Source: Bilabrum cf. latius (Eukaryota). Taken from it: a stretch of DNA of 64,000 nucleotides. The stretch is taken from assembly GCA_965178125.1 (NCBI GenBank), contig OZ237736.1, positions 1,364,001 through 1,428,000 on the forward strand, written 5' to 3'. How positions within the stretch are numbered: the stretch's first letter is position 1; each line of letters opens with the position of its first letter. Positions 19,501-58,391 of this stretch are shown here, in pieces. Under the pieces are notes generated by a model. The model had not been told where the DNA came from. It saw only the letters and a list, made by a program, of their open reading frames with translations, and ran no database searches. Position numbers and translations under genes: made by a program.

Positions 19501-20917
19501 GGCCGCAGCTCTCAGAATGGCAAGCGGCATGCTGACTACGTCGCGCAGTCGTGTTGTTGCAAGGAAGAGGGCAGCCAGAGACGCAGTGATCAGGTAGCTC
19601 GCGATCCACCTGTGGGCATCGTCCTGGGGGTGGAGCCCGCATGACCCCGTGCAGAACGCTCTGGATGCAGACGGTGAACTGGCACTCTTCCGACCCAACG
19701 AGCTGGGAGTCACCGCCCTAGATGCGCCGCTTGCTGCAGCCGACCCAGCGGTCGTGCGGCGAAAGTTGCAGGCTAAGGCTGATGCCAGGAGACGCAGTCG
19801 CAAGCGGAAGAGAGCAAACGCACGGGCTCGCCGCAGCCATGAACCGAATGGATCGGTGCAGGCCCCAGCAGGCCGTGCTGCTGGGCCACCCGCCCTGCCA
19901 GTCAGGAGCTCTCTCTCTTGTTTCCTAGGCAAGTCAGCACGTGGTAGGAAGGATGGAGCACGAAATGAAGGGGCATCACCCGCTGAACAGGTTAAGACGA
20001 CGAAGCCCCATGACCCCGCTGCTGCCAGTGGCGGCATAGTTGATCCAACTTCCCGTGAGTAGAAGGACAGTATTGCGTTGCGCAAGCACAGCAATGCTGA
20101 CGCGAGCAGTTCGCGAGCGGTGCGCAGCAGCGGGGCAGTAGCAGCAGCTAGTGTGGGTGTTGGTGTCGCAGGCGAGGGCGACCAAGCAGCAAGCGCACCT
20201 ACATCGAGCAGCAAGGTCGAGGTGGAGGCGCGAGGCACTGCGGGTGCTCCGGCCGTGGGTGCTGACTAGGCTGCAGGTTAGACCGACGAAGTTGAGGACG
20301 AGGGCGAGAAGGAGGGCGAGGACGAGGGCGAGGACTGGGCCGATTTCGAGGACGCCGATCCGGAGGAAGAGTCGTCGAGTCATGCTGCGGTGGCTACAGG
20401 CCAGCATGGCGGCAGCGAGTCGCTACCTGCCACTAGCGGTGCAGGTGGGGCTGCAGAGGTATCTACCAGCGGAGGCAAGAGCCCTGGGAGTAGCCCTAGC
20501 CCCCCAAGCACGGACTTTGGAGATATCTTTGATGCTCTCGATGGCGGCATGCTCGGCGATGCAGGTGCGCGGGAAGCGGAAGATGTCGAGCAGGCAATCG
20601 GCGGAGGGCTGCGTGGCGCATTCGCTGCGAATGCGGCTGGTAGTAGCAGTAGCGCAAAGTCTGATGAATCAGTAGAACTGTCGGGCAGCCTGGGCGATCC
20701 GGGCATGGCCGAGCGTTTGCTTGCAGTGTTGCAGCCGGTCCAAAGTGGAGCTGCTGCTGGCTCGAAACCATCGCTGGATTCGGTCGGGGGGGATGCCAGT
20801 GCTGCTCTGGCTGCTCTGCAGGCATCCGCGAGGGCGTGCCCAGCCGCAGCTGCGGACCAGGTAGCCGATGAAATGGCGGCCATGCTTGGGCTCTTGACTG
20901 GCTCCGCGGAGGACTGA
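16595..20917 (+). CDS. Acidic repeat protein with multiple WxxF/DFGxx adaptin-ear-binding-like motifs (aftiphilin/synergin-like architecture)
   Basis: ORFs 16595-19489, 19649-20062, 20078-20269 and 20390-20917 are one frame joined by 5 TAGs. Has 8x DEDWGAFDDA plus EDWADFEDAD and TDFGDIF. Ends at TGA. Confidence 0.65.
16750..19340 (+). repeat. Coding tandem repeat, unit about 350-400 bp, about 7 copies, with nested (GGGGAT)n and (GGGCAGGAT)n microsatellites
   Basis: Near-identical units differ mainly in (GD)n and (GQD)n copy number and in in-frame deletions. Confidence 0.95.
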
Positions 20918-35373: not shown

Positions 35374-36435
35374 CGGTTTCTTGGGCCTGTCTGCGACCGG
35401 TACGTCGAGCAGCCGCTCCGCCTCTTCAGCCGTCATTCCCGCCGCCTCCCAGGCATCCTCCTCACTGACGTGCTCCACGTCATCGAACCACATCCCGAGC
35501 CCGTCCACCACGGCGCTCGCCAGCTCCTCCGGCCCCGCCAGTCCACCCGACTCTCTTCGGGCCGTCGTGAGGAAGTCCTCGTGCGATCGGTCCCCACGGT
35601 ATGCCGGCCGCTTGGGCGGGAGCTTGAGGACGCGCATGAGAGCGGGGTCCATGTTCGTCAGGAAGCTCGTGTGGTGCACGAAGCGCCCCCTTGTGATGGT
35701 CTGCGCGTTGCCCCCCACCTTGCGGGGCCCGAAGCAGTAGTCGTGCTCGGACAGATGGAAGGGGCCGGACGGGCCTCGTGCCACATCGACGAATCCTCTC
35801 GAGGTAGCTCTGCGCCGCAGGGCGAGCAAATCGCTGTCCTCTCTCGGTTGGGTTTCACCTGCGGTCATAGGCTCTGCAGATCCGAACAAGGGCGCATATG
35901 CCCTACTGTACAGCTCCGATGTCCACGCCATGATCTCTCGTGGGTGTTTCGGCACGCCATCGCCGGAGTTGAGAATCAAGGATCCAAAAAAGGTGTCCTG
36001 ATCGGCCACAACCGTGCCGCCGCCCGTGAACCTTCGAAGCACATCTACCTCTGCACTGCGGATGACAGCGGGAGGTAGCAGCGATTCCGGGGGAAGGCAC
36101 TATTACTCAATAGGACAACAAAAGCGTGTGGTGGATGACGTCTGCACTAACCTGGCCGCCGCAGTCGAATCAATCAATTCGCTTGCCACGCCGGACATGC
36201 CTAGGACTACTGTTGGCCTCTACAAGCCAGAACCAACAACACACCTGTAAATATGAGGATAGTGAATAGGAAAATGCGGAATGAATCGGGACCAAGGAGC
36301 TTGGGCGGGGCATGCAAAAGGCCGGACATACCAATCATGCTGTGTCCTCCGAAGCAAAGCCTCCTCAAGAATTAAGCACTTGCCAATGCTGATGCGAGCA
36401 AGCTGCAGAGCAAACACTTTCCTGCTACCAATCAT
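35332..36435 (-). CDS. Lipoate-protein ligase A-like (BPL/LplA/LipB family), 3 exons
   Basis: LEEALLR..W|CVV..PTVVLGMSG, RRFTGGGTVV, DYCFGPRKVGGNAQ, HHTSFL and YRGDRSHEDFL. Introns 36245-36331 and 36056-36151. TAG at 36220. Confidence 0.9.
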
Positions 36436-36628
36436 GCGTTGATGGGCATACCGCTAGTCATCCTATTCGATGCCAAGGACAGTGAAATTGCAGTCATCAT
36501 GGAAGGTTCACCGATTTCGTTCAAGACGGCCCGCCGGTCAACAATCGGCGCATTTCACACGCCGTTCGGTGATCTTTGCGAAATCAAACTCCAAACGAGT
36601 AATTCCAGGCGAGTATTAATCGCAAGGA

Positions 36629-39600
36629 ATGGGATGCTGCTACAGCGCCGTTCAACCTGTCGGAAAAGGATGTCAAAGTGACGTAGACCGAAGCATGCTG
36701 CTCGACCGGCTAGGCAAGAGAGATGGACGAATTGGGGGAGACCTAGAGGACGACCGGATGAGCGGAAGATGAGAGGCGTGCGAAAGTAGATGGAGGAGAT
36801 ATGGTGCAGGACTGGGCTAAGAGCGATCCGAGGAACCGTTAGGTTGAGGGACGGAGAAAGGAAGCTTTGGAACAGGTAGAATGACGTCAACGAGGCACTG
36901 CAGACGAGATTGGTAAGGCGGATGGCGCCACGAGCAAGTCTGTATGGATGGTGAGAAGACGGAGTGGATGGGACCTGCAGATGGAAGTGGTGAATCTTTC
37001 ATCTGTATGGTTGCGGACGAAAGTCCACCGTCATGGTTATGCTGTCTTGTGCAGCACCCATTGTTCGGTTATGCTTGACCCTAAATCAGATTTCAGATTT
37101 CAGATTTTTTTTTTCGAGGATCCAGGAGCCTTAGCTGCACCACAACCCCACCACGGCGGGCAATAGGTGCTGCTAGGTCATCCTGAGTGAACTCGGGAGC
37201 CTCGACGAGTGCCACAGAGTTTGAGCTTTGGACGAGGGTCCATTGTGAGATCTCGAAGGTGATGATGATGAGTGAATGTAATGATACGACTTTTTCAGAT
37301 TTTTGTAGGCGCGTGGCGCTACTATGATCAGGGGTAAACCCTATGATCAGGTAAGTAATCATGACAAGGTAAGTCTGAACGTGATTGCGCCGGACGATCT
37401 CTTCTACTGCAGAACGCATGGGATCCAATTCCTGTATGGCGCGAGAGTGCTGATCGACGTGATCAACTACGGTTGGGAGTACGACTTCCAGAAGGACGAA
37501 TGGAAGTCAGGGGCCAAACTCCCAAAAGTCAAGCGGGTTAGCCTGGAGCCGTTCATACGCAAGCTCCGAGACATTTGCTGGTACAACCCCGTCGCGGAGG
37601 CACGGGACGAACTAGCCAACATGTTCGAGTTCATCGGCGATGCAGTCGCGGAGGTCCGAAAGACTGGCATGTACGTATCCATGGCTCAAGTGGAACTGAA
37701 TGACTACCAGAACGCGATCGCATTCTGCTCATTCAAGTGGACAGAGATGGGCAAACTTGAGACTACCGAAGGAGAGAAGTGGCGCCAAGCCATCCTGGAG
37801 CCCGAAAAGTTTGACGTACCTCAGCCACGCAGGAAGAAACGGGCCAAGAAGAAGAAGAAGAAGAAGAAGGACAAGGCTACAGAACCAGAGCCAGAGACCC
37901 AAGCAGCAGCAAGTGTATCGACACCAACGGCTATCAACACGTTCACCCGCGAGGAGGATCCCGACCAATCGCGGTCTTCGCACACTAGCCCTCCAGCGAG
38001 CCAGGTGAAACTGGAGGAGTGCACAACCACCACAGATCTAGGCCACGCCGAGATCGACAATATCAAGGCCCGGAGAGGGGCCAGTGGCAGCTGGGCTGCT
38101 GCTGATGGAGAGCCACTGGAAGCTGATGCGGATGGGTACATCAAGGGGACGGAGTGCGCTGCCTGGGGCAGGCCTCCAGGAGAGGAAGGAACGGAGGGCG
38201 CTGCCTGGGGCAGGCCTCCAGGAGAGGAAGGGACGGAGGGCGCTGCCTGGGGCAGGCCTCCAGGAGAGGAAGGGACGGAGGGCGCTGCCTGGGGCAGGCC
38301 TCCAGGAGAGGAAGGGACGGAGGGCGCTGCCTGGGGCAGGCCTCCAGGAGAGGAAGGGACGGAGTGCGCTGCCTGGGGCAGGCCTCCAGGAGAGGAAGGG
38401 ACGGAGTGCGCTGCCTGGGGCAGGCCTCCAGGAGAAGAAGGGACGGAGGGCGCTGCCTGGGGCAGGCCTCCAGGAGAGGAAGGGACGGAGGGCGCTGTGT
38501 GGGGTTGGCCTCCAGGAGAGGAAGGGACGGAGTGCGCTGCCTGGGGCAGGCCTCCAGGAGAGGAAGGGACGGAGGGCGCTGCCTGGGGCAGGCCTCCAGG
38601 AGAGGAAGGGACGGAGTGCGCTGCCTGGGGCAGGCCTCCAGGAGAGGAAGGGACGGAGGGCGCTGCCTGGGGCAGGCCTCCAGGAGAGGAAGGGACGGAG
38701 GGCGCTGCCTGGGGCAGGCCTCCAGGAGAGGAAGGGACGGAGGGCGCTGCCTGGGGCAGGCCTCCAGGAGAGGAAGGGACGGAGGGCGCTGCCTGGGGCA
38801 GACCTCCAGGAGGCGGGTCAGACCAGAAGAACGGGGAAGGGGCAGGAAGGTCAGGGCGTCCTCCACCCCCATGGCCCGATGGAGACGGGAATGGGGACAT
38901 GAGTGCAATGGGCTGGTGGAGTCCGGCACTCAATGGTCATCGCGACACCTCCTGCGCAGCAGATGGTGCCCATGACTCGGCTAAACTATTAACTTCTACC
39001 AGCCGAGTTCATGGAGCTGTCGTCTTGCCTGTGGTGGAGAACGCGCGAGGCCTCCGGTGGATTTTGAACTGGCAACAGTTTCCACAGAGCCGGAATCGGA
39101 AAGGAGCTGGCATGCCGGTGGTCGGGAAGCCCTCCTATGGGTATCGAGCCCGAGGCTCCAGGAGTTTCAGTTGCGCCACAACCCCACCACGGCGGGGTAT
39201 AGGCGTTTCTGGATCATCCTGAGTGAGCTCGGAAGTCTCGATAAGTGCCACAGAGAATTAGTTTTGGGCGAGGGTCCAAGGCGAGGTCTCGAAGGTGATG
39301 ATGACGATTGATTATGAAGATACGACTTTTCACAGATTTCAGGCATCAATGAAGCCCGTAACCAGCTGGTGGATGATGTTGCTGGCCAAGAATACGCAAA
39401 CATACGAGATTTCGACGACATCACGGTTGATTCTATCTTCGAGCACCCGCTTCTCCGGCAACTATTTATGATTTTCGTGTCGAGCCGACTGGCGGAAGAG
39501 AATGGACGCTTCCTGCTCGACATGCGGGAGCTGAACAAGAACAGCATCGCCATGAGCGAGGTCATATTGCGCACGGCAATCGATTTTATGTAAGGCGATC

Positions 39601-41756
39601 GCTTTGATCCACCTGTGGGGTTGTGGACTGCAGAACAGCTGCGGTCAACTTCGCTTCACTACCCGTGGATTTCTCATTCGTCTCCCCGCAGAGTCGATGA
39701 ATACATCCGGCGTTCGTCTCCGATGTGCATCAACCTTCCTGATACCATTCGGCGAAACGTAGAGCGTAAAGCAGACGACAGAGACACCACCGAAGGAGCA
39801 GAAATACTGCTAGCACTGGGGTCAGCCGATTCGGAGATTCGCAGGCTGGTTCGGTCCAACTTCCTCAGCGAGTTCAAGCGATGGCTAAAGGGCGAAGGCG
39901 CTGTTGAAGGATTCTAGGCCGCGGCGCCGCTGCGAGCCCTGGATGGCCGCAAACGAGTCGTGATCATCGGCGGGGGCTTCTGCGGGGCCTTTGCAGCTCG
40001 AGAGCTTGATCAGCATCCGGGGCTGCACGTGACCATGGTAGATACCAAGAGTTTCATGGAGTACACACCATCGGTGCTGAAGGTGTTTTGTCGTCCAGAC
40101 TACCACGAGAAGATCATCGTGCCTCACGGGGCCGTGGTGAAAAGAGGCGACGTTGTAGTGGGCGCCGTGCGAGCCATCCGGGACCGCGAGATAGTGGTGA
40201 ATCAGGCGTCTATCCCATTCGACTTTGCAGTGGTGGCCACTGGTACTCACTACCCTTAGCACTTCAAGAGCGTTGCCATCAGCTCGAAGTTCCGTGGCAA
40301 GCAGGTGGCACAGCAGCGCAAGGTGATGGACCAGGCCAAGAGCATCTGCATTGTGGGCGGCGGCTTTGTCGGGTGCACGTTGGCCAGCGAGATCAAGGAG
40401 ACGATGCCCGATACGGAGGTGTCTCTCGTGCACTCCCGCGCCCGGCTCATGCAGCGCCTCGTGCACTCGGGGGCGGGGGACCCGCACGAGCTGGCCGTGG
40501 CGCGGTTGCGGGAGCTGGGGGTGCAACTGTTCATGGAATAGCGAGCCACGAGCTGGGACCGGAGGGCCAGGCAGGTCATCACCACGGGCGGGGCAAGAGT
40601 GGACGCGGACCACGTGTTCTGGTGCGGAGGTCCTGAGCCCATGACCAAGTTCATGGTCCCGCACTTGCCGCAGACTCTGGACAGCCGGGGGTACATCCAG
40701 GTGGACGCTCACCAGCAGGTGGTGGGTGCCTCAGGTGTGTTTGCCGGAGGCGACTGCATGGTGTATCGGCTGGGGGACAACGACAGGGAGGCGAGGCAGC
40801 GGTTGCGTACCTTGGGAGCAGTGGATGCTATCCAGCTGCACCACGACTTTGTGGCATCTCTGGACAAGCCCGGGGGAGAGGTGGACGGGGGCGGGGAGCA
40901 AGGCGGGGAGGACGTGGCATTGTCGGGCATGAATGGGACAGGGGCTAGGCACGACAAATTGACGACAGGGCTAGCGCACAAGCACGCCGGCGCAGGAAGC
41001 GGCCTTGGCGTGGTTAGCAAGGGAAGCGAGGGTGGTGGTCTTCAAGGTGGCGATTACAGTCGCGAGACCGAGGGAGGAAGCAGTCCCACGGCATCCAACT
41101 GTCGAGGGCGAGCATATCTGGTCGAAGTGACCCGCAAGGATACGATGTCAGGGTCATTGTCACAGCATGGGCGAAGTGACAAGCGAGGCACCGGCATGGC
41201 ATGGGGGGATCGCGCCACAATCGGGTCTCTGTCACAGCATGGGCGAAGTGACAAGCGAGGCACAACCACATCTGAATGGAGGGATCGTGACACCACAGAG
41301 CCAGTTGGGAGCACTTAGGTCGCCACTGTGAAACCATAGGTAGTTTTAACTGGTGATCCAACAGTTGGGAGCACTTAGGTCGCCAATGTGAAACCATAGG
41401 TAGTTTCAACTGGTGATCCAAGGTAGCCCCAGTCCCAGACGCAGTCCTCGGTGGCCCTGCCCAGCGACACGGGCTGCGTGCACGAGGAGAAGATGGCCAA
41501 GAACGCCATCCAGCACGGCATCATCATCGCAGAGAACATCAAGAGGCAGCTGGAGGGGACCAGCCTGAGGGCGCGCAAGCCCGAGGTGGGCATCAACCTC
41601 ATGATCATAGCCATGGGACTCAAGAAAGGTATCATGGTGCAGAACGGGGTGGCCCAGGCGGGGGACTTTGTGGCCAAGAAGGACTGGATCGAGCAGACGG
41701 TGATTGGTGAGCTTGTGGAGGGAAAGCACATCCAGCACATTGTGGGGGCGTTCTGA
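36629..41756 (+). CDS. RGS domain + AIFM2/FSP1-like FAD/NAD(P)H oxidoreductase fusion, copy 1; exons 36629-36713, 39343-39589 and 39692-41756
   Basis: N-terminus MGCCYS..DRSMLLDRL|GINEARNQLVDD is homologous to copy 2. RGS motifs LFMIFV..LAEENGRF, YIRRSSPMCINL and EIRRLVRSNFLSEF; Rossmann motifs VIIGGGFCG, IVGGGFVG and VFAGGD. TAG at 39915, 40257, 40539 and five more in 41316-41426. Ends at TGA. Confidence 0.8.
37115..37308 (+). repeat. Diverged direct repeat of about 190 bp, copy 1 (copy 2 at about 39151-39342)
   Basis: Shared collinear blocks CCACAACCCCACCACGGCGGG, TCATCCTGAGTGA, AGTGCCACAGAG, CGAGGGTCCA, TCTCGAAGGTGATGATGA and GATACGACTTTT..CAGATTT. Confidence 0.85.
37324..39222 (+). CDS. 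Hypothetical ORF inside the insertion: globular-looking N-terminal part, poly-Lys stretch, 16x WG-containing repeats
   Basis: 632-codon ORF with RRKKRAKKKKKKK and GTE[G/C]AAWGRPPGEE repeats. No recognisable family; start and splicing uncertain. Confidence 0.45.
   Translation: MIRGKPYDQVSNHDKVSLNVIAPDDLFYCRTHGIQFLYGARVLIDVINYGWEYDFQKDEWKSGAKLPKVKRVSLEPFIRKLRDICWYNPVAEARDELANMFEFIGDAVAEVRKTGMYVSMAQVELNDYQNAIAFCSFKWTEMGKLETTEGEKWRQAILEPEKFDVPQPRRKKRAKKKKKKKKDKATEPEPETQAAASVSTPTAINTFTREEDPDQSRSSHTSPPASQVKLEECTTTTDLGHAEIDNIKARRGASGSWAAADGEPLEADADGYIKGTECAAWGRPPGEEGTEGAAWGRPPGEEGTEGAAWGRPPGEEGTEGAAWGRPPGEEGTEGAAWGRPPGEEGTECAAWGRPPGEEGTECAAWGRPPGEEGTEGAAWGRPPGEEGTEGAVWGWPPGEEGTECAAWGRPPGEEGTEGAAWGRPPGEEGTECAAWGRPPGEEGTEGAAWGRPPGEEGTEGAAWGRPPGEEGTEGAAWGRPPGEEGTEGAAWGRPPGGGSDQKNGEGAGRSGRPPPPWPDGDGNGDMSAMGWWSPALNGHRDTSCAADGAHDSAKLLTSTSRVHGAVVLPVVENARGLRWILNWQQFPQSRNRKGAGMPVVGKPSYGYRARGSRSFSCATTPPRRGIGVSGSS
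38146..38812 (+). repeat. 42-bp minisatellite, about 16 copies
   Basis: Tandem array of GGGACGGAG[G/T]GCGCTGCCTGGGGCAGGCCTCCAGGAGAGGAA. Confidence 0.95.
39151..39342 (+). repeat. Diverged direct repeat of about 190 bp, copy 2, forming the 3' end of the insertion
   Basis: Collinear with 37115-37308. Both copies end in a pyrimidine tract followed by AG|GC. Confidence 0.85.
41302..41421 (+). repeat. 60-bp tandem duplication within the coding linker of RGS-oxidoreductase copy 1
   Basis: CAGTTGGGAGCACTTAGGTCGCCA[C/A]TGTGAAACCATAGGTAGTTT[T/C]AACTGGTGATCCAA x2. Each unit has two in-frame TAGs. Confidence 0.9.
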
Positions 41757-42233
41757 TCACCAAGCCTCCATCCGACGTGGAAGCGCAGCAACGCTGGCTT
41801 CTGGCCCGGAACTTATGTGCTCTATCATGGTGCAGCAGCATGATGGCGGCCTTAAGCAGAATAGTCGATTGGATGGCTATATGACGAGTCGGGTGCCAGC
41901 ACTGCCCAGCGGGGTATTTGCTGTCAACGTTCAAGTCCATGAGTCGAATGCGACCCGAAAAGCAGCGCAGGGCTAGCAGCCTTAGTTTGAGTTCGAAAAT
42001 TATTGCAAGATTGTCCCCCCGCCGATTTTTTTTTCCTTCCAGTCGTCTCGACTCTCGGGTTGGGCCCTTCAACGAATATTCGTGCTCGCCCAGTTCCCCA
42101 GGGGGATCTCGCCGAACACACGAAGGCCTACCCGGCTGCTGCTGCGTCACCCAAACACAACCACCCCACCTGTGTGCGTCAAATTGTGAGATTGATCCGC
42201 ATACTTCTTTATTGTATCTGCAACACTAACAGG

Positions 42234-44581
42234 ATGGGTTGCTGCAGCAGCTCTTCGGTCCGACCCGTGGGACAAGGACGTGAAAGTAGCGATGTTGAAC
42301 GAAGCATGCTGCTCGACCAGCTAGGCATTAGCCAAGCCCACAATCAGCTCGTCGATGACATAGCGGGCTATGAAAATGTTACGGTGTCAGCTGTCGACGA
42401 CATCACGGTTGATTCTATCTTCGAGCACCCACTTCTCCGGCAACTATTTATGATTTTCGTGTCGAGCCGACTGGCGGAAGAGAATGGACGCTTCCTGCTC
42501 GACATGCGGGAGCTGAACAAGAACAGCATCGCCATGAGCGAAGACCACGTACGCACGGCAATCGATTTTATGTGAGTACGGTGTGGCTTGCATCTTGTGG
42601 TATCAGAGGACGCTTTGACGTGCATGTTCCAAGTTGCTCAACTTCGCTACACATCTCGTGGATTTCTCATTCGTCTCCCCGCAGAGTCGATGAATACATC
42701 CGGCGTTCGTCTCCGATGTGCATCAACCTTCCTGATACCATTCGGCGAAACGTAGAGCGTAAAGCAGACGACAGAGACACCACCGAAGGAGCAGAGGCGC
42801 TGCAGTCTCTTGGCACAGCCGATTCTGAGATTCGCAGGCTGGTTCGGTCCAACTTCCTCAGCGAGTTCAAGCGATGGCTAAAGGGCGAAGGCGCTGTTGA
42901 AGGATTCTAGGCCGCGGCGCCGCTGCGAGCCCTGGATGGCCGCAAACGAGTCGTGATCATCGGCGGGGGCTTCTGCGGGGCCTTTGCAGCTCGAGAGCTT
43001 GATCAGCATCCGGGGCTGCACGTGACCATGGTAGATACCAAGAGTTTCATGGAGTACACACCATCGGTGTTGAAGGTGTTTTGTCGTCCGGACTACCACG
43101 AGAAGATCATCGTGCCTCACGGGGCCGTGGTGAAGCGAGGCGACGTTGTAGTGGGCGCCGTGCGAGCCATCCGGGACCGCGAGATAGTGGTGAATCAGGC
43201 GTCTATCCCATTCGACTTTGCAGTGGTGGCCACTGGTACTCACTACCCGTCTAGCATCAAGAGCGTTGCCATCAGCTCGAAGTTCCGTGGCAAGCAGGTG
43301 GCACAGCAGCGCAAGGTGATGGACCAGGCCAAGAGCATCTGCATCGTGGGCGGCGGCTTCGTTGGATGCGAACTGGCCAGCGAGATCAAGGAGACGATGC
43401 CCGATACGGAGGTGTCTCTCGTGCACTCCCGCGCCCGGCTCATGCAGCGCCTCGTGCACTCGGGGGCGGGGGACCCGCACGAGCTGGCCATGGCGCGGTT
43501 GCGGGAGCTGGGGGTGCGCCTGTTCATGGAGTAGCGAGCCACGAGCTGGGACCGGAGGGCCAGGCAGGTCATCACCACGGGCGGGGCAAGAGTGGACGCG
43601 GACCACGTGTTCTGGTGCGGAGGTCCTGAGCCCATGACCAAGTTCATGGTCCCGCACTTGCCGCAGACTCTGGACAGCCGGGGGTACATCCAGGTGGACG
43701 CTCACCAGCAGGTGGTGGGTGCCCCAGGTGTGTTTGCCGGAGGCGACTGCATGGTGTATCGGCTGGGGGACAACGACAGGGAGGCGAGGCAGCGGTTGCG
43801 TACCTTGGGAGCAGTGGATGCTATCCAGCTGCACCACGACTTTGTGGCATCTCTGGACAAGCCCGGGGGGGAGGCGGACGGGGGCGGGGAGCAAGGCGGG
43901 GAGGACGCCGACGACAAGAAAGGAGATGCCGACGACCCCGCAAGCACCCCTGCCGCAGGAGCAGCCGTGGACATATACGAGGGCAAGGAGCCCACGAGCG
44001 GTGGCATCGGGAGCACGGGGGGTAGCTCTTCGGAAGGCACCGAGGACCACTCCAGTGCCGCTGTAGCGGACAGCAGAGGCAGCAGGTACCAGGCTGGCAG
44101 CAACACGAAGTCCGTTCCTTCGGGCACACTCTCCCAGCAGGGGGCGCCGGAGGGACCAGGCGACCCCAGCACTGCCTAGGGCAATGGGGACGCCTCGTAG
44201 GCGGGTAGCGGCGGCGTCGGTGACACAGGGGCTCAGACGGACAAGGGGGGCAAGAAAGCCGCCTCTCGCAGGTCCCAGTCGCAGTCCTCGGTGGCCCTGC
44301 CCAGCGACACGGGCTGCGTGCACGAGGAGAAGATGGCCAAGAACGCCGTCGAGCACGGCATCATCATCGCAGAGAACATCAAGAGGCAGCTGGAGGGGAC
44401 CAGCCTGAGGGCGCGCAAGCCCGAGGTGGGCATCAATCTCATGATCATCTCCATGGGACTCAAGAAAGGCATCATGGTGCAGAACGGGGTGGCCCAGGCG
44501 GGGGACTTTGTGGCCAAGAAGGACTGGATCGAGCAGACGGTGATCGCGGAGCTCGCGGAGGGAAAGCACATCCTGCACTGA
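42234..44581 (+). CDS. RGS domain + AIFM2/FSP1-like oxidoreductase fusion, copy 2; exons 42234-42571 and 42685-44581
   Basis: MGCCSSS start and the same RGS and Rossmann motifs as copy 1. TAG at 42908, 43532, 44177 and about 44198. Ends at TGA. Confidence 0.85.
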
Positions 44582-44947: not shown

Positions 44948-47900
44948 TCACTGGGCTGCCTGTACGGTCACAGTGACGGCGTCTGCATACGCCACGACGT
45001 CCTCATCGTAGTACAGGTATGCCTTGGACGTGGGACCGACAAACCTGCCAATGCCCGCGGCGCTCAGCTGCACAGGCGCCTTCTTGCTCTCGCCGGCGTC
45101 TAGCTCCCTCCAGTACAGCAGCAGCTCCCTCCCGCGCTGCTCCCACGCGTCGATGGTGCCCTGGGCCACGAGTCCCTGCAGCTGGGATGGCTGCAGCTGC
45201 AGGCCAGCGGGGACGCCCACCACAGCGATGGTCATGGGCACCCCCTTGGAGGCGCGCTCGTTGGTGACGGTGACTGTCATCTCCGTGGACCTGCCTTCCG
45301 CCATTGTGGTGTCGGCGAGGTTCACTGCAATGCTCAACTGAGCGGCGTCTGCATCTGCGGAGGCGGGCTTTACTTCTCCCCCTGCTTGGCGTGTTTCAGG
45401 CTGGGGTGCCGAGCGCGAGCGGTACGACACCTTCAACGACCACGGCAACACTGCTTCGGAACCTTGCTGACCGCCGACTGCTCCTCGCTACGTCGATGCG
45501 GACCATGTGTCATCATAGTACTCAATGTAGGTCTACTGCTGCTGCACACGAACGCTAGTGCCAGACAGGCGAGCTCTGAAGACCAGTGCCTCCGGGGACT
45601 GTGCGTCTGCCTGGATGCTCTAGTCGATCGCCTCCAGTAGTGGGCGCTCTTTTAGCAGTACCGGGGCGAGGGGTGAGGACCCTTGTGCCTAGGAACGGGT
45701 CACTACCCCAGGCATTGTGCCCTCCGCAACTGACTTCCCCTTCGAGTCAAACATGAAGAAGCTGGTGCCTGCCACCCGCTTCGCCATCACTGCGTCCAGC
45801 TTCGTAATGGCTTTGAGCGCGAGGACGGTAGCCTGCGTGGTCCCAAACCGGCCTCCCCGGTTCTGAGTCAGGACCCACTGCACCCCTTGCGTGGCCGCTG
45901 TAATAAGCTTCATCGCGTCTTGGGCAGAGCTCGTACCGGGGTAACGCTGTAGAATTTCGCTTGCCTTGATCCAGGCCAGAACGGCAAGCGAGGTCGTCTC
46001 CACGCGCAAACCATCGCCGTCGCTGCAAGTTATTGACGCCACCGCCCCCGGCACGCTGCCTTCGTAGCATGCTGCTGTTGAATCGCTCCCACCGCCACTG
46101 CAGCTAGTCTGCTGTGCATCGAGGAGGGAGAGTGCCATCGCTGTCGCCAGAACGGCCGACTCTTTCCGGGTAGCTGTTTCCACTACGTGCTCAGCTGCTT
46201 CCATGGAAGCCAGTGCCACCAGGGCTGCAAAGTACGGATCGTTGGCATACGTCAAGCTAGCATCTGCAGCGGCTGGCTTCCCCTTGAGTATTGGCCGGCC
46301 GGACCGCTGTGCGGTGCACTGCTTGCTGGTCGTGCTTCTGACGATAGGACGGGACAGCTGCTGGACGGCGTGATCAAGCTCAGCGCGCAGCTCAGTGGCT
46401 AGACCGCGCAGAATATTTTTCTCCCGCAGCATTTTTGAGGGTGACAGCATTGCCCACAGAATGTACGCATCCGTCGTGTGAGGAGGAGCGCGACCGAATG
46501 AATCCAGGGCCTGGCTGTCGCGCTGGAACCCCCCAGAGCCGTCCCTCTTGCTGAGCAGGAAGGATCGAACCCTTTTAAGAAGCGCGGGGTCCACGCCTGA
46601 CCACACGGTTGACATGTCTAGAAACTGCAGCGCGCCGTAGGCAGTCAGCGCTTCGTGGGGACCCGCCCTGCCGCCCTGGCACCCGAACCACTCGAACCCT
46701 CCGGGGTGCCCCTCGCACTCGAACGTGAGCAGCTTCTTGTAGCCCTCTTCTACTAGGGTCTGCGCCTTTAGCTTTATTGCATTCGGCACACTTGGGTGCA
46801 TGTTGAAGTAGTGCATGGCCATCGTCATCGGGTACACGGTGGAGCTGCTCTGCTCGAAGCAGCCGTGCGGTTGCTGAATGAGAGACTCCAGGGCACTCCC
46901 TAGAGTTGCCGCAGGGGACTGGTACAAGGCAAATGCAGCTCGCATGGAGCCAGGGATGACATCGGCTTTGCTTGGGAGCGTCAGTTTGATCTCGTTGTCG
47001 CCCTCGGAGGACAGCACCCCTGACGCGTGCTCCTCTCTCAGGAAGCCGGAAGATTCCACCTTGAAAGAGCCCTCCCACGCGTCTTGGTGTCCGCTGATAT
47101 GAGCGGCCTTCTTGTTTGTTGACTTTGTTTGGCTCGCTCTTGCCCCTGGAGTCGGTGTTGGGAGCGGGTTGCAGCCTCGACAAGCAGCGATGCGGATCGT
47201 CTGGACCCCCACCTTGGCTGGCGTGGGCTGCCCAGCGTACTTGCGAGCGTTGCCCTTCCATACTCTTTGACCAGAGCTTCGCCCCGGATTCTGGGTGCTA
47301 ATGTCTGCAACTGGGCGCTCCGGACGTGGAAGCAATCCGTGCAAAGGGAGAAAGGCGCGATCTCCGGAAGAGCCGCGCGTCAGGTTCATCGCAGTCAGCA
47401 GTGCAAAGGCGGCTTCTGGCTCATCCGAAGCCACAGTGTCCGGCACAAACTCCTTCTTAGCCGGACGGGCAATCACGTTCCATTCAGTTGGCGAAATAGT
47501 GCCGGCGCTGCCGGAGCTGCGAATAAAGTCGCTTGCCTACTTCCAGCTCATCGGAGCTGCGTACGGTCCCATATCTACCCGCACACTCACAGACGCACGA
47601 TCCCGAGCGGGCTCCGAGAGCCCCACCAAGACCGGCAGGAGGTACTGGTCCTCGCTCCCGATCACAGGGAGGGGCGCCACGGCCAGTGACAGAGGTTTGG
47701 CGGTGCGGATGTACCCCGTCATCGCGCCAAGCCCCGTGTGCTCGCCGCCCAGCTGCAGTGTGGCAGAGCCCCGGTTGCGCTGAGCCAGCTTCGCGGGCGA
47801 GTAGGCAGATTGATCGAGAGAGGAGTGCGAAACGACGTCCACCTCGATGCGAAACCGCCCGATGGTGTCGGGCAGGCCGAGCTCTAGCTGCGCGAACCCG

Positions 47901-50900
47901 GTTGATGTTGCGACAGAACCGAACGCGACAGTCTTGGCGAAGTCGGTGCGCACGTCTGTAGAAGCGCCATTCGTGTTGGTCACCTGCCTGTGCGCGAACA
48001 CTCGCTGGAAAAAGTGGGCTCGTCGCTGCTGGCGATGGCGCTCGTTGTAAGATCGCTTGTCCACGACACTCGGGGCGGGTCTCGCTGGTGGGACGGCAGC
48101 AACGTCGTGGACCGCTCCGAAGTCAGCCGCGCCCTCCATTGCTGGGGCCGCCCCTGCTGCCATTGCCATTTCAGGAGCTCCGTCTGCCATGGCCATCATC
48201 GGGACCGGGGCACCGAAGGCTCTGTCCATGATCTCACCTCGAATTGCATGCATGCGCTACATCTTCATGTTCGCGGCACCCCCACCTCCGCGAGCCATCA
48301 CTAAGCCAGCTGGTCTTACTCCAGTTGCCGATGCGTACATGATGTCTGGCGAGTAGCCCGATACGCTCGAAGTGGGCGCAAGACACACCGCTCTTGCAAT
48401 TTTCTCAGCATCCTTCCTGTCCTTGGAAGGAACAAACAACCGCTTCCAGTGCAAGCTAGCTAGCGTCTGCTGGCTGCTCTGCGAGTCCGCTCCCTCATTT
48501 CCATGGATGCCACGTGAATCGCCTTCACCGGCTGATTCCGGCGCACTGCCGGCATGAGGTCCAGCCCTGGATATCCCAGGCATTCCGATGGGACCTCCTT
48601 CGTTGCCATCGCCCTAGCCAGCTGCCTCCTCCGCCAGTGCATCGCGATCGATCCCAATGTCTGCGCCACGACCGGCAGCGAACACGGGGCGACCACCAGG
48701 CGTCCCTCCGCCGCGCTGCTGCGGTATGAACCGAGGCCCGCTAGGGGCGAGCGGTGACAGCGCGCCTGCCAGATCCGTGTACACGAACCTGCGCCAGCCC
48801 TGGGTGCCCAGCAGCAAGTCGGTGGCGTCAGCAGGCGACGCACCCCGATCTCCTTCCTCTCCCGTGGCTGCCTGCCTCTCGGACACGCCGCTGCCAGGGA
48901 ACACACTCGCAAGATAGGCGCCTGCGTCGGGGAGGGGAGCGCCGAACGGCTTGCCGCTCAGGGCGTCTACCTCGCTCTCGAGCAGCAGCTGGGCCATGGG
49001 CCGGGGCTGCCACCGGCGGCGCTGCACCCGCGAGGTCTCCTGGTCATCGACCACGCGGACCAAGATGAGGGAAGGCGTGTCCTGTCCTCTAGCGCGTGCA
49101 CGCACCGAGAGACTGACGGTGGCGCCAGGTGCAAATGCCGGTGGCTCGTTGCGCGCGGCACCGGCCGGGCCTAGCTGTCCGACGGCAGGCATAGACTCCC
49201 ACGAGCTGTGGCTGATCGCATCGGTGTTCTTCGTGGCGAGCCCGTCGTAGCTCGTGGCGTATTGCATCTGTGACGTCTCTAGCTTGGTAGGCGCGTCCAT
49301 CTCGGTCACTCGCGCGTCGAGCTGGACTCGGCTGGATTCCGGCGGGGCCCGGAATACCAGCCTCTCGGCGAGCGGTGTCCCCGTCTCGCTCTCTACCACC
49401 GTGATGCGCAGCACGCCGACCGCTGAAGAACTCAGTTGGGGCACCAGGTTCACTGCAGTGCTTATGGGCGCCGTGCCCTGTAGCGTCACACCGACCTGGC
49501 ACAGCATCTGCTCCTTCTTGTACATTCCGACAGTCACGTGCCCGCGGTGCGTGGAAGCCAGCAGCACCTTGACCGCGCTTTCTCCGTCATACATGCTCTC
49601 AGGTGCAAACATGGACACGCCGAACGGACGGGGTGCCTGCAGGGGCAGAGTCCGAGCCGCAGAGTCGGGCTCCAGAATCCTGAGCTCGAGCTGGCCCGCA
49701 CCTGAGGGAACAACGAACACCGGAGTCACGCCACGGCCTTCGTGCTGCGTTCGTGCAGCCACGATACATCCGCTCGGAGCCGCCACGCCTCCCTCCCCTG
49801 CTCCCCGCACGCCGCCGCGGGAGGAGGGTCCCGCGGCGCCATCTCCGCCGTCCCTGCCCAGCGACAGGAACTCGCCCAGCGAGCCCATGACACCGCCTCC
49901 GAACGAGCCGCTGGGAGCATTGCCCTGCAGCGGCGCTTGGTCCCCGGCGGAGCACACCGCCACTGTGACGTCAGCCGGGTCACCACTCGGCAGAGCAGCT
50001 TCGAAGTACACGCGGCCCGGCAGGCCGGCCACCAGCTCTCCTCCCTCGGGGTATGCCAGCACGTCGATGGCGCGGGTCGCGATGGGAATCGCGCGAGAGG
50101 ACGACTCTACCTGATTCGTTCCGCCCGCCGCCCTGTCCTGGTCGAAGACCGTTACGCTCAGCGTGTCTGCGCCACTGCCGGCCCCGGGTCCGAGGGGCGC
50201 GGGCAAGGTGAACTCGAGCGCGCCCCTGCCAGCCGCATCCAGCACCACCTCTCCCTGCCACACCTCCTGCCCGCCCACGCGCGCACTACCGCTGACTCGC
50301 GCCCGCCAGGCAGGCGCGCCCGAGGACCTGGTGGCCTTGATCGATGCGCGCACGGCGTCCCCCTGGCCGTAGGCGTCCTTGTCGAATGCGAGCTCAACGG
50401 ACATGAGGCGGTCCCTGCTCGCGAGAATCACGATTCGCCTCTCCACGGAGGGCATGGTTACCCGCATCGCTTGCGCGCTTGCGCCGCCCTGCCCTGCAGG
50501 CTGCTGCACCACTACTCCCTGGGCGTCTGCTAAGGTGACCGCGATCGTGTACTCGCCGCCCGGCTGGGAGTCGCTGGTCTGCCACGCAGCGACGAGAACT
50601 CCGTCGGTCGATTGCAGCGATACCTTGCTTGGTGTGTTGCCCACATTTCCTCTGCCCGAGTTCCTTGGATTCGAGCTACCAGGGGTGCCATCGGCTTGCA
50701 TCGTGTCCGAGAAGACCACACCACCGGCCGCATCCTTCACCTGCACGGCGAGGCGCGGCATCTTCACCATCGGAGGGTAACCCCCAGACTCAATGGCGCT
50801 GCTGGCGCGAGGCGGTGCAAATGTTATCGGATCCACACACTGCACACGGATGAGCACAGCCTGCCCGGGCTGATACTGGTCAAGGTCCGTGCTGATGTGA

Positions 50901-50947
50901 GCTTGAAGCCGAAGGGACTGCACAGACTCTTTGATCATCTCCTGCAA
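44948..50947 (-). CDS. Alpha-2-macroglobulin-like thioester-containing protein (about 2000 aa; 5' end unresolved)
   Basis: MG-domain motifs ISTDLDQYQPGQAV and AYPEGGELVAG; VRTDFAKT..LPDTIGRFRI; thioester PHGCFEQ; GGFEWFG; HEALTAYG; GRFGTTQATVLAL; C-terminal SKAYLYY. Five ORF-track pieces are joined in frame by 7 TAGs. Ends at TGA. Confidence 0.88.
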
Positions 50948-51463
50948 ATATCTAGGGTGGAATCAGACTGGAATTACAGTATGCTGTGCCACGACAAACG
51001 GGACCTCGGTCCTTCCGAGTCCGAAAGATGTGTTGCTCCAAAAACTGCTTCGGAATGATCCACCAACGTGTGCTCTCACCGCCGCGTCGTGATTCGACTC
51101 AGACTCGAAAGTCACTGATTTCCCAAGCAATTGGTCCAGTGGCGGACCAGGTCTGCACGAGAGAATGGAAAGGTGCTCCAAATGAACATGCTCCAATGCT
51201 ACAAGATAGCCTACAATTATTCCGAGGTGCGTTGGCTTACCGCGGGGATACTAGAGACACTGTACGGAAAACGGCCATCGTCCCCAAAAGTGTTACGAGT
51301 AAGGATGACCCTATGGTCCACACAAGGCATTTCCGAGAGACCATTGTAAACAAAAATGGGGCGTTTTAAACCGAAAAATTTGGATGAACACAAGTGCTCG
51401 CTACTGCTAAAATTTAACCGGATGTATTGCAAGATGCAACACTTCACTTTCCTCGGTAGAGAA

Positions 51464-54181
51464 ATGGGAAATGCGGACTCAAGACCCGGAAGTGTACCAA
51501 TTATAGCTAGGCCTAGCCTTCCAGGAGGAAGTAGCAGGCCTCCAGTTCCGTCTACCTCCGAGATAGCGAAGCGATTGCGAGCAGCACTCGTAGGGCAAGA
51601 TCGGTCGTACTGGCTGAGAACGTATCAAGGAGTCATGTTAGGCAATGAAGTAGTAGATTGTTTGGCTGCGCAAGATTGGGCAGAGTCGCGCGAGCATGCC
51701 CTCACGGTGGGGCAGCGGCTGGTGGATGGAGGTGAGATTGGAAGAAGCGTCACACAGCAGCATTATCTGCCGACGCACGAAGCCAATGAAGGCGATCGAT
51801 TCTATCAAACTCGGTTGTTGATTACATGTGTTGCTATTGCTGTGTACGCTATTGCATAGAGGGCAAGTCTGTTTGCGGGTCACACCGTTCATTCCGCCTC
51901 TCGAAGGCGACGTGGCAAGCAGTGCGTCGCCGCATTTCCGTACGGCTCACGTGCCAGGCCTTTGAATTGACCTTTTGTGGCTCGCATGTAGGATCCCCAG
52001 CGATAGGCATGTGTTTTCATCTCATTGCAACGTTGCCGAGCAACGATCCGGGATGCGAGATCCATAACCAGTCCAAACACATACCCTCTCTCCGCCGCAG
52101 GATTCATTCACCACGTAACGCACGACCACCCGTTAAAGGACAAGCCCTTTTTCTACCGACATGCCGGCGCGGTGGCCCCTGATGACCCGCGCCTCAACGC
52201 CGTGGAGCGGGCGGCGATGGAGTACGACCTGATCGTGATCGGCGCGGGTTCCGCTGGGCTCACGGCCGCCAGCTTCGCCGCAAAGATGGGTGCCCGCGTG
52301 GCGATGGTGGAGAAGAACCGCCTGGGAGGGGACTGCACATGGACTGGCTGCGTACCGTCCAAGACCCTCCTGCACATCGCCAAGGTCGCGAGGACTGCCC
52401 GGCGGGCGTCCACCATGGGCCTGGGCGTCTCGGTGGACGAGGGGGCGGTCAAAGTGGACATGAAGAAGGTCCGCGACAAGATCATGTCTGTGATCCACGA
52501 GATATACGCGGAAGAGACTCCGGAGCAGATCGCCCACAAGGGGACGGGCGTTGACGTGGTTCTGGGCGAGGCGCGGTTCACGGGGCCGCACTCCGTGGTG
52601 GTCAAGCTCAAGAACCCGGAGCAGCCCATCGTGAGCGCGTGTGCATCCAAAGTTGGAGGGAGCGCTGCTGCTGCGGCGTGCAGCGGTGGCGAGGCAGCCG
52701 AGGGAACAGCCTCCTCCAAGGAGCCAGGCAACCCGGCATCAGCCGCAGCAGCGGGCCGGTCGGGAGCAACGACGGGTAGTGCAGGGGGTGGGGCCGGGGC
52801 CGGCCAGGCGCCGCCCAAAGCTGAGACAGGCCCCGACGGAAAGGTGCTGCCCGGCCACAGGCATCTGACAGGTAAAGCTTTTGTCATCGCAACTGGGGCC
52901 GTGCCATCCATCCCCGCATTGGCTGGCCTCGGCGAGGTCGAGTACCACACGTACGAGTCCATCTTTGAGAACGACAGGCTGCCCGAGCGCCTGTGCGTGC
53001 TCGGAACTGGACCCATCGGGTGCGAGCTGGCGCAGGCGTACGCCTATTTGGGCAGCAAGGTGACGATATTCGGCCGTCACCTGATGGGCAAAGAGCACGA
53101 GGGCGCGAGGGACGTGATCCAAAGGGTCTTCGAGAGAGAGGGCATCGAATGGGTGCCTGAGAGGCCCACCCGGGTGGACAACTTGGAGAAGCTGGGGAGT
53201 GCGGGCGCAGGCGATGGAGCTGGCGCCGTCAGTGTAACGGGAAGCGGGCAAGGGCAGTTGCCGTCACAAACAGGAGAGGAAGGGGGAGGCAAGGCGCCGT
53301 ACAAGCCGACCATCGCGGTGACCGCCGGCCGACGGCGAGTCGTCTGCGACATGCTTCTAGTGTGCACGGGCCGCCGCAGCAAGGTGGACGGCATGGAGCT
53401 AGGCAAGGCCGGGGTCACGCTCAGCGCGAAGGGCGGCCTCAAGGTGAGCGATTACCTGGCGACCAACGCGCCGCACGTGTTTGCGTGCGGGGACTGCATC
53501 GAGGACATGCCGCAGTTCACGCATCTCGCTGGCAAGCAGGGCTTCGTGGCCGCCCGCAATGCGTTGTTCCCTGGGCGCTCCGTGGGCTGGAACGAGACTG
53601 TGGTGAACCCCCGCTGCACCTTCACAGACCCAGAGGTGGCATCGGTGGGCCTGTAGCCCCAGCAGGCGGAGGCCTTGCACGGGGCAGAAGACGTCATGAC
53701 CGTGCGGCGGGCCAACGGGAAGATCGACCGGTCCCTGTGTGACGACGACGTCCCTGGGTTCGTGGAGATGACGGTGAAGCGGTCGGACGGCTCCATCCTC
53801 GGGGCGACGATCGTGGGGCAGCGGGCGGGCGAGCTGGTGAGTGAGGTTGCACTGGCGATGACCAAAGGTCTCAAGGCGGCGGACATCGCGCTGACAATCC
53901 ACGCCTACCCCACGCACAGCATCGGCCTGCAGCAGGTCGCGAGCGAGATAGGGAGCGCGGTGTTCAGGGCAAGCACAGTGGGCCGCATCGCATCGAGCCT
54001 CTACTCCAAGGCAAGGATCGTGAGGGACCACTCCTCCCTTGCCGTGGACGAGCACGACGAGGGCCTCGCGCAGGCAGTGCCCATGCCGCTGCTCGAGTCC
54101 ACCGAGGAGAAGGCAACCGCCGCCGACGCAGGGGGTGCGAGCAGTGGCGCTGGTGCGGGCCTGGGGAGCAGCGGGCCCTGA
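51464..54181 (+). CDS. DEP domain + class I pyridine nucleotide-disulfide oxidoreductase (DLD/MerA-like) fusion; exons 51464-51731 and 52101-54181
   Basis: MGNADS start. DEP motif QDRSYWLRTYQGVMLGNEVVDCL..SREHALTVGQRLVDG|GFIHHV..HPLKDKPFFYR. Oxidoreductase motifs YDLIVIGAGSAG, GGDCTWTGCVPSK, GTGPIGCE, FTDPEVASVGL* and IHAYPT. TAG at 53654. Ends at TGA. Confidence 0.88.
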
Positions 54182-55769: not shown

Positions 55770-57390
55770 TCACCTTGCATCCCCTGCCTTGCCGTTCGAT
55801 TTGCCAGCGGACCCGAGCAGCCACCCCTGCAGCCCCTTGAGCTTGGGTGCCTCCGACCGCCCAGCCGCCCGCTAGGCTTTGCCAGCCGGTGCTACCCTGC
55901 GCCGTTGCGCCTCGGGTGTGCCTTTCTCGACGTCTAACTCACCCCGTTGCTTCCGCTTGTCGCCAATCTTGCCGCCAGATGCAGCGGCCGTGCCATCCAG
56001 CTGGGTCGAGCCCCCCTCTGCATCGCTGGGCGCACCAGATCCATGCGATCCAGAGGTGGTTCCTTCGTCCTATTGCTATTTCTAGCGCTGCCGTGCCACG
56101 TGAAACATCATACCGATGTTTCCGCTGCTGGATCGAGAGGCAGGGCGCCGCTTGCTGCCACTGGCGGCCTCGCCAGAGCCAGGGCTGCCAATCGGCGCAG
56201 GCGTACCACCGGCAGATGTGGGCGGGAAACAGCTGCGCCACGGAAGCAGCGCCTTGTACCTAACGTCTACTGCCTTGGCTGCCGCAACAGCGGCGTCGAC
56301 TCTGGCAATGTACCGCTACAAGCCCCTGCCGTACTTGCCCCCTAGCCCTGCCTTGGTCATCATGCGCACAGTGCCTGTGATTGAGCGCTCGGCAAACCTG
56401 GACCGTCCCTTTCCTTGGTCGTCAGCCAGACCCAAGCACCAGAGGATACCGGCATAACCGTTCGGGTCGCGGCCGTCCAGCTGCCACTTGTCGTTTAGCC
56501 TGACTCCCCACTCAAACGCAGTCCTCGCGTCTGGGGTCCACAGCAGCAGTGCCTTCATCCAGTACATGCGCATCCTCCCGTGCATCCTGCCGGTGGCCAC
56601 AAGCTCTCGCTGGGCCGCGTTCCAGTATTCGTCCCCCGTCTGTGCCTTTTCTAGCTAATCGTACGTGTAGAGCACCGGCCTCGCGTCGACCTCGTGGTTC
56701 TCAAGCGTGTGCCGGGCCCAACCAGGCAACGCTTCGTATCTGTCGTACACGTCGGGAGCTCTGAGAACTAGGTTAATCGACTTCTCCCGCCAGACAAACA
56801 CCTCTTGGAGCCACTTGTCGCAATCAACTTGCGATGGGCCGGGGTCTGCAAGACTGCGGTGCCCAGGCCCAGCTGCCTTGGTACCGGCAGCAGCTTGCGA
56901 TCGGCCTCGTCCTTCCCTCTGGGCTGCCCTTGCCTGCATGATTCGCAGCGCTGGGATGATCTCGAGAGGAGAGAGGTGCCCAAAGTGAAGGTATGGGCTG
57001 ATGCAGCTCGTGTGGCCCTCCCCTGGGTCGTTTCGGTGGGCAGCATACCCTGCCAGGCCCCTGCCTCGCTGCACCGCTGTCGCGATCGAAGCGTCCCGCA
57101 CCTGCTCCTTGCTGGGGTCGCCGGGTTCGCTACCAGCTAGAGAGGCAAGGCTGCGTCGAGACCTCGGTGCCATCAAGAAAGCTCGTAGCCACGCCCTGCC
57201 GTGTCTGTACCCTCCTCGAAATGCATGCTTGGCGGCAGGCACGTTCGTGTCAACCTGGGGTAGAACCCAGTTCATGATTGCAGATACCACCGCTTCCCAT
57301 TCGTCCCAGCGCCAGTCAAGCCAGGCCTGCGGGTTAGACGGTTCTGTCAGGGTAGCCTATGGTGGCGCCTTTTGCTGCTTCTCTAAGCTA

Positions 57391-57434
<44 letters not shown>

Positions 57435-58391
57435 ACTGCTCTCAATTGCCGCTGACTGTTGAGCGTCATTGTCACTTGCTGAGTGCCACTGGAGCCCCTG
57501 CATCAGCAAGTCAGGGTGCTGTCGGGCTGCGGGTGCACCACTGGCAGAGCCTGGCGGTGTGCTGCTGGCAGCTGCAGGTCTGCTGGCTGCTGGTGCTGCC
57601 GATGCGCGTGGCAAACTGCTGTCACCTGCTCCATCGCTTGCGCTCAAATGCAGAGCTGCATGATAACTTAACCAGTTTACATCAGCGCAAACCCACCTGC
57701 ACGAACTACAAGCAGCAGACTGCTTGTCCCCTGCCTAGTCGCCGGTGCCCACGCCTGTTACAACGCCGGCCGAACCGACAGCTTCAGCTGGAGGTAGCCG
57801 TGTGCTAGTTCTTGCATGGGCGGATAAGCTGCAGTGCTGCGGGGCCCAACCTGTAGGCATCACTCGATTAAGGCCGCGGAATAACTTGGTGCGCAGCGAG
57901 GCCGCTGTAGGCTCGAGGCGGAGGGATGCAGCGTCGGTCGGGCATGCCACGTCACCCTCCACCTCCCAGACATGTCTGGCAAATTCAGCGCCTCGAAGCA
58001 GCCTCCTCCACGCTCGGATAGTTCGCTGATATCCCGCATCCATAACCAACTCGTGTGCTTGTATTGCCTTGCATAGGGCAGGTACCACAGCTGCCGGGTA
58101 CCCGTGAAGTACGATGCATCGGATTCCTCTACTTCGCAGGGACAAGGCGGCATCTGCAAGACCTTCGGCCAAGAATTGAAATGATCGTTCGTTTGCCCCG
58201 GGATACCTTGGCTCGATGCAGAAGCATACGAACAGCCTGAGTTTCTGATCGGATGCTAGCTTGATTGCTAGCTCAAGCGCTGGATTCACGACTGCTCGGA
58301 CAGATCTTTGCATCCAGTAGAGCACCGATCGAGGCGCATCCTTAGGTTTGAATGATGATGAGACGTCGCGCCTGGTCCTGCCTTGCCACAT
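55770..58391 (-). CDS. phr: Class II CPD photolyase with low-complexity insertions and a C-terminal extension
   Basis: VLYWMQRSVRAVVNPAL, ISPYLHFGHLS, TGDEYWNAAQREL..GRMHGRMRMYW and LNDKWQLDGRDPNGY. Single frame through TAGs at 57735, 57357, 56655, 56316, 56082, 56076, 56070 and about 55873. Ends at TGA. Start uncertain. Confidence 0.9.
57393..57440. repeat. (CTG/CTA)n microsatellite encoding poly-Ser in the photolyase
   Basis: Run of gctgctgct... in the sequence. Confidence 0.85.

Follow-up and report, generated by a model that had tools for sequence, protein, structure and literature searches.

A 2.6-kb mosaic of repeat units with GC...AG ends in the first coding exon of one of two tandem paralogs of Bilabrum cf. 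latius

The stretch of DNA analyzed in this paper comprises 64,000 nucleotides of contig OZ237736.1 of Bilabrum cf. latius (hereafter, the window). It is eukaryotic in character, with about 60% G+C and short GT-AG introns, and it carries a tandem pair of paralogous genes on the + strand: copy 1 begins with an ATG at 36629 and ends near 41755, and copy 2 begins with an ATG at 42234 and ends near 44580. Each paralog encodes, in a single frame, an N-terminus starting MGCC..., an RGS-like region, and an oxidoreductase resembling FSP1/AIFM2. The RGS match (PF00615) is weak, with E about 1e-3, below the Pfam cut-off; the pyridine-nucleotide-disulphide oxidoreductase part has FSP1/AIFM2 as its best solved relatives, with E = 3e-22. 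The combination of an acylation-type MGCC N-terminus, an RGS-like region and an FSP1/AIFM2-like oxidoreductase is an unusual architecture. Copy 1 contains 2,629 bp, at 36714-39342 (+), that are missing from copy 2, and it is this insertion that concerns us here.

The coding part of exon 1 of copy 1 (36629-36713, +) ends in phase 1 at CTAG. At the 5' junction, 36713|36714, the sequence reads ...CGGCTAG|GCAAGAG..., and at the 3' junction, 39342|39343, it reads ...ATTTCAG|GCATC. Behind the insertion the coding exon continues with the RGS-like part (39343-39589, +), which is followed by a 102-nt GT-AG intron at 39590-39691. The empty site in copy 2, 5.6 kb from the insertion, is uninterrupted and reads CAGCTAGGCATT at 42318-42329 (+); that is, copy 2 has CTAGGCAT at the place where the insertion is missing. 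The letters AGGCA stand at both junctions of copy 1, at 36712-36716 and at 39341-39345 (both +), and occur a single time in the empty site. Identity over five letters at both junctions has a chance of about 1 in 1,000 in a fixed register, and is therefore more than coincidence. The origin of AGGCA is nonetheless ambiguous, because AGGC also stands directly behind an internal repeat of the insertion (DR1, described below) and may belong to the repeat's own end.

A preliminary description of this DNA, made from the letters alone, had delimited the insertion by comparison with copy 2 as a segment with GC...AG ends, flanked by AGGCA on both sides, whose excision restores the reading frame. All of this holds when the positions are re-read in both copies: the ends are AG|GCAAGA...TTTCAG|GC, and joining 36629-36713 to 39343 in silico yields a product, MGCC...LLDRLGINEARNQ..., that is colinear with copy 2. 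The restored frame follows trivially from the definition of the insertion, and hence is not independent evidence for splicing. If the insertion is left unspliced, the frame of copy 1 meets a TGA at 36770-36772, and the product has 47 residues.

Outside of the insertion, the similarity of the two paralogs switches sharply between patches of about 65-77% and patches of about 99% identity, and parts of their introns are unalignable (stretches compared: 36560-36716 vs 42165-42327; 39340-39720 vs 42322-42715; 40915-41431 vs 43908-44271). Identity is 77% over the first 88 nt of coding sequence (36629-36716 vs 42234-42327) and 86% just behind the insertion site. To judge by this alternation, the pair looks like an old duplication patched by gene conversion. 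We also observe in copy 1, in a part missing from copy 2, a 60-bp exact-type tandem duplication (41302-41421; 2 copies, 96-97% identity).

Evidence beyond the assembly itself comes from four public runs, X1, X5, X6 and X8, all in the form of contigs; everything said below about the pattern of copies derives from these contigs only. X1 and X5 behave as DNA, with introns and spacers covered, and X6 and X8 contain spliced RNA. The 5' junction of the insertion is bridged, with at least 31 letters on either side, by contigs of X5 and X8, and the X1 contig extends only 24 letters past this junction into the insertion. The 3' junction is bridged by record 14 of X5 (38772-41038). Independent runs thus supply contigs that cross both junctions.

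The insertion is not one coherent element: it is a head-to-tail mosaic of multicopy repeats, which we call unit A, DR1 and unit X. Unit A (36717-37114, +) ends in (CAGATTT)x3 plus T10, a tail that occupies 37087-37114. Next comes DR1 (37115-37308, +), 194 bp long and truncated at its 5' side, a copy of the same repeat with which the insertion closes at its 3' end; it is 81-82% identical to 39151-39339. Unit X (37309-39342, +), delimited by means of frames and contigs, holds an open reading frame (ORF) and ends in the 192-bp 3'-terminal repeat DR2 (39151-39342, +), whose last letters are ...CACAGATTTCAG. DR1 ends ...CAGATTTTTGTAG and is then followed by GC, as is DR2, and tails of the CAGATTT type close all three parts: unit A, DR1, and unit X with its DR2. 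The preliminary description had proposed a cargo-carrying mobile element. Part of that proposal stands, in that the DNA is multicopy and carries a real coding gene, but there are three tail-bearing units rather than one element.

The same description had reported no terminal inverted repeats, and we agree. Local scores of the ends compared against each other were 8-14, whereas 300 random pairs averaged 13.6, with 18 at their 95th percentile; this end-against-end comparison gave no inverted termini for the whole insertion nor for any of its units, and inverted repeats of at least 60 nt numbered 0. Within the window there are no further copies beyond the DR1/DR2 pair. Rfam had 0 matches to 36000-40000 at E <= 1, a search of the window for tRNAs was negative, and the insertion has no tRNA-like part. 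A scan of metagenomes with a 20-nt word common to DR1 and DR2 returned 15 loci, whose blastn identity extends over only 21-31 nt, and which are chance matches.

Copies elsewhere in the genome, a point raised by the preliminary description, are present: parts of the insertion recur with different flanks in the contigs of the runs. In X1, the contig at 36735-37049 has a word depth of 228, compared with 35 for the adjoining unique contig (35800-36737), where word depth serves as a rough proxy only for copy number. Several variant contigs overlie 37050 and 39034-39283; over DR2, X1 has as many as 4, at 39258. The unique junction contigs of X5 and X8 stop at 36746 and their shared contigs begin at 36717, so that the two overlap by k-1 = 30 letters for 31-letter words; from these contig ends we infer that what the insertion has in common with other copies begins at 36717, immediately behind AGGCA. 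Record 16 of X6 (4,628 nt) consists of 4,238 nt of other sequence followed by 36713-37102, and so at least one other copy of unit A continues about 4.2 kb upstream; X8 has a loose end before 36713 as well. Further loose ends, which mark the start points of other copies, lie before 37009, 37044, 37115, 38988 and 39143, and exits lie behind 37099-37107. Upstream of 37115 and of 39143, the other copies carry a common, different sequence. In contigs from elsewhere in the genome, a DR-like tail is joined to 37703 (X1, X5) and an A-like tail to 38760 (X1); these joints are 5'-truncated copies of X sitting behind tails. Stretches of unit A are identical to other copies.

The ORF of unit X has 632 codons (37324-39222, +; ATG at 37324, TGA at 39220), and its frame is open from 37309, or from 37285 with TAG read as sense (see below). 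It is composed of a conserved N-terminal domain, a K-rich linker, a GTEGAAWGRPPGEE repeat and a C-terminal part; the repeat corresponds to a 42-bp tandem repeat (38146-38812, +; 15.9 copies, 96% matches) that runs in frame within the ORF. An exhaustive protein search gave 194 matches at E <= 0.001, and among the best 150 of these 194, 147 fall on the repeat region only and 3 on the N-terminal domain. These 3 relatives of the domain, from among 1.84 billion representatives, are P0001, with 95% identity, P0012, with 55-56%, and P0011, with 40-41%. No homologue of near length was found for residues 1-290, and the ESM Atlas held no usable match for the ORF. The predicted structure of the N-terminal domain (mean pLDDT 42.4) is unusable. 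Contigs of both RNA-containing runs match the ORF with 0 differences (37272-38175 in X6, 37333-38175 in X8), and this cover includes the junction between DR1 and X. We take the ORF to be a real and conserved gene, from an orphan family, that is transcribed somewhere in the organisms of X6 and X8. A possible small intron at 37351-37412 was discarded, for homology spans the stretch, which is therefore coding. We likewise discarded the idea that 39288, where all contigs of X6 and X8 end, marks the end of a transcript: this point lies exactly 30 nt behind the variant site at 39258, and we read it as a break in the assembly graph.

Is the insertion spliced? The joint 36713>39343 occurs in 0 of the four runs, two of which have spliced RNA, although contigs leave room for a spliced form. 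Record 23 of X8 (36569-36746), from a run that contains RNA, crosses the 5' junction unspliced, and another copy of unit A is retained unspliced inside the 4.6-kb contig of X6, which also contains RNA. Removed introns are visible nearby: the joint 42571>42685 (GT..AG) of copy 2, by which intron 42572-42684 is removed, is present in X6, and in the upstream, minus-strand lipoate-ligase-like gene the CT..AC joint 36055>36152 is present in X6 and X8 and the CT..AC joint 36242>36330 in X8. These three introns supported by RNA contigs measure 113, 96 and 87 nt and are all GT-AG; a 2,629-nt intron would be more than 20 times longer than any of them, and would contain a transcribed gene on the same strand. 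X6 and X8 have no cover over 39364-41442, which holds the later exons of copy 1, and X6 none over 36394-36690; these gaps are not used as evidence. No database protein with the spliced N-terminus of copy 1 was found by way of the exon-2 translation and longer proteins, but the product of copy 2 was not found either, so that the collection apparently contains neither and the result is uninformative. The preliminary description had held that the insertion can splice out as a GC-AG intron, and had called it an introner-like gain. The missing joint and the unspliced X8 contig speak against the former claim; the unspliced copy of unit A in X6 and a copy pattern that resembles retroposition speak against the latter. 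The insertion is mobile-type DNA and not a typical introner; its status as an intron is a prediction from its ends, and it is more likely unspliced.

We hold, with about even confidence, that the insertion is a 5'-truncated, retroposition-like insertion of multicopy mobile-type DNA that interrupts copy 1. Retroposition typically leaves common tails, variable 5' truncation and a short flanking duplication. The fixed 3' tails, the variable 5' starts, the truncated units behind tails, the short flank duplication or microhomology, and the lack of inverted repeats together form such a pattern, and not the one of cut-and-paste, MITE-like introners; from it we infer the mechanism. The DNA would have arrived in the first coding exon of copy 1 by target-primed reverse transcription of a longer repeated element or transcript, accompanied by truncation at the 5' end, by template switching, or by both. 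The simplest history would be one event that placed a 5'-truncated piece of 2.6 kb, whose internal mosaic was either inherited from the source or created by template switching. On this view, AGGCA would flank the insertion either because a short piece of the target was duplicated or because target and element end share this microhomology. The GC...AG ends would be a by-product of these flanks, which automatically create AG|GC...AG|GC, and the donor context GCAAGA would consist of the flank plus the first bases of unit A. Because its unspliced product has only 47 residues, copy 1 has most likely been interrupted, and the working gene would be copy 2.

Several observations, in addition to the latitude that contigs leave for a spliced form, weigh against this reading. 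There is no reverse transcriptase or endonuclease in the ORF, which has no Pfam family at E <= 0.1, and 0 of the 16 other long frames of the window match a mobile-element family; the preliminary description, too, had recognised neither a transposase nor a reverse transcriptase. Both the donor, AG|GCAAGA, and the acceptor, TTTCAG|G, agree well with the splice-site consensus. Finally, the downstream frame of copy 1 is fully open for 720 codons (39594-41753) and is closed only by a TGA when TAG is read as sense, and over 446 codons compared with copy 2 there are 17 synonymous changes and 14 that are non-synonymous. Such an open frame fits a gene that is still used as well as it fits a recent hit or gene conversion.

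Among known systems, 5'-truncated non-LTR (long terminal repeat) retroposons and chimeric retrocopies made by template switching share with the insertion the common simple-repeat 3' tails and variable 5' starts, the short flanking duplication or microhomology without inverted repeats, and the head-to-tail joins of different units directly behind tails. The insertion differs from non-LTR retroposons in that its tail is of the CAGATTT type and not poly(A), its cargo ORF encodes an orphan protein, and neither this ORF nor the 16 other long frames encode a reverse transcriptase or endonuclease. As in an LTR retrotransposon, an ORF lies between direct repeats, here a pair of about 190 bp. But the identity of the two repeats is only 82%, DR1 starts 401 bp inside the insertion instead of at its edge, the flanks of the DR1...DR2 unit are not duplicated, and no Pfam, gag or pol match was detected. 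An LTR element and a Helitron were both rejected on the basis of termini and flanks.

The signals at the two ends might instead be genuine: whatever the chemistry of transposition, the spliceosome would remove a 2.6-kb GC-AG intron via AG|GCAAGA...TTTCAG|GC, and copy 1 would be functional. We regard such an introner-like gain as doubtful, and regard as more doubtful still that one tandem copy has just gained a GC-AG intron from a 2.6-kb composite of retroposon type with a gene of its own. GC and AG do stand exactly at the boundaries and their removal restores the frame, the AGGCA duplication provides AG|G contexts on both exon sides, the downstream frame of copy 1 is intact, and parts of the element are multicopy. 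According to passages of a review of introners (PMC11282704), their splice signals may be supplied by the exon, by the element itself or by the duplicated target, some introners lack target duplications or inverted repeats, and GC-AG borders prevail in some dinoflagellate introners, all of which would match; the same passages state that most introners appear to be DNA transposons. Like the introners of Micromonas, Aureococcus, dinoflagellates and others, the insertion is repeat DNA in a coding exon, in sense orientation, with a short junction duplication that here gives the AG|G contexts, and with GC...AG borders such as passages of that review describe for some dinoflagellates. Unlike them, it measures 2.6 kb, is a three-unit mosaic rather than a single unit, holds an expressed gene and has no inverted termini, and its copy pattern suggests retroposition instead of the DNA transposition that those passages attribute to most introners. 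Furthermore, its splice joint is absent from all four runs even though two of them yield spliced contigs of neighboring genes, its 5' junction in X8 and the other unit A copy in X6 are unspliced, its length of 2,629 nt contrasts with 87-113 nt for the 3 RNA-supported introns, a transcribed gene lies inside it on the same strand, and none of the other copies is seen as an intron. The intron status of the insertion and of its copies is predicted at most.

Three other explanations were weighed. It is possible, though unlikely, that a repeat-rich donor segment of 2.6 kb was copied into a break at the DNA level, either in microhomology-mediated repair or when replication switched templates, and that AGGCA provided the microhomology; the composite as such would never have transposed. 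Five nucleotides of microhomology at both junctions would suit this history, as would a mosaic of different repeat families without termini of its own. It also receives slight support from X6, whose RNA contigs match the DR1-X junction exactly and do not include exon 1 of copy 1, which an identical donor locus would fit. On the other hand, what other copies have in common with the insertion begins, on the 5' side, precisely at the junction (36713-36717), and the arrangement of a tail plus a truncated X occurs in at least 2 other places, which is easier to explain by recurrent retroposition. Loss rather than gain, in which an ancestral intron was later filled with repeats and was precisely lost from copy 2, strikes us as very improbable. 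In its favor, the paralogs are old, with patches homogenised through gene conversion, and any consensus intron should show AG|G...AG|G, which would leave only the extra CA (1 in 16) unexplained; but repeat-derived sequence begins 3 nt behind the donor GC and continues up to the acceptor AG, with no private intron sequence, and the stretches of unit A identical to other copies point to a recent arrival. Most improbable of all is an assembly artefact, by which repeats were misplaced into copy 1. The segment is indeed repetitive, and no single listed contig spans the insertion, but both junctions are bridged in independent runs; therefore the insertion is not an artefact of assembly, a misplacement being excluded at the junctions themselves.

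The reading frames of this window require a comment on the genetic code. Conserved genes across the window contain in-frame TAGs, and their long frames close only at TGA or TAA. Such loci include 630-1883 (+), 44951-50962 (-), 55773-58421 (-) and 51971-54178 (+), as well as both paralogs, with TAGs at 39915, 40257 and 40539 in copy 1 and at 42908 and 43532 in copy 2; the latter are retained in a contig of the RNA run X6. Homology to solved structures continues through these codons. For example, an alpha-2-macroglobulin-like frame of 2,004 codons has 7 TAGs, TAG is aligned to E in a class II photolyase and in the FSP1-like part of both paralogs, to S or T in a mercuric-reductase-like enzyme, and, in SepSecS, 4 TAGs are aligned to A, G, D and E. 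Moreover, one TAG common to both paralogs (39915, 42908) lies between the RGS-like and oxidoreductase parts, and since no ATG precedes the Rossmann motif, this TAG must be read through. The organism evidently translates TAG, most likely as Glu or Gln. There are precedents for a reassignment that affects UAG only (PMC5304391). The reading of the insertion is unchanged by TAG as a sense codon. The SepSecS gene itself (630-1883, +; E = 1e-107 to the human enzyme) belongs to selenocysteine synthesis, and because of its presence some TGA codons of the genome may encode selenocysteine.

Two further loci deserve mention. Upstream of copy 1 lies a lipoate-protein-ligase-like gene (PF21948; 35332-36460, -), whose introns at 36056-36151 and about 36243-36329 are removed in contigs of the RNA runs. 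Its ATG is near 36435, about 190 bp from that of copy 1, and the two genes probably share a divergent promoter. Elsewhere in the window, at 16568-20914 (+), there is a very long acidic frame with repeat units of about 390 bp, a GC skew of up to 0.56 and no Pfam family.

What the insertion means depends upon whether it is spliced. If it were, the locus would offer a datable gain of an intron, with the empty site next door, and the element behind it would differ from the short DNA-transposon introners on record; it would be an intron gain freshly caught, caused by an element that does not cut and paste, in an organism that reads TAG as sense. If it is unspliced, as we judge more likely, it would be an ordinary hit of mobile DNA on a redundant gene copy. 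Its main use would then be as an entry point to an uncharacterised family of repeats, with tails of the CAGATTT type and an orphan ORF, in a poorly known eukaryote.

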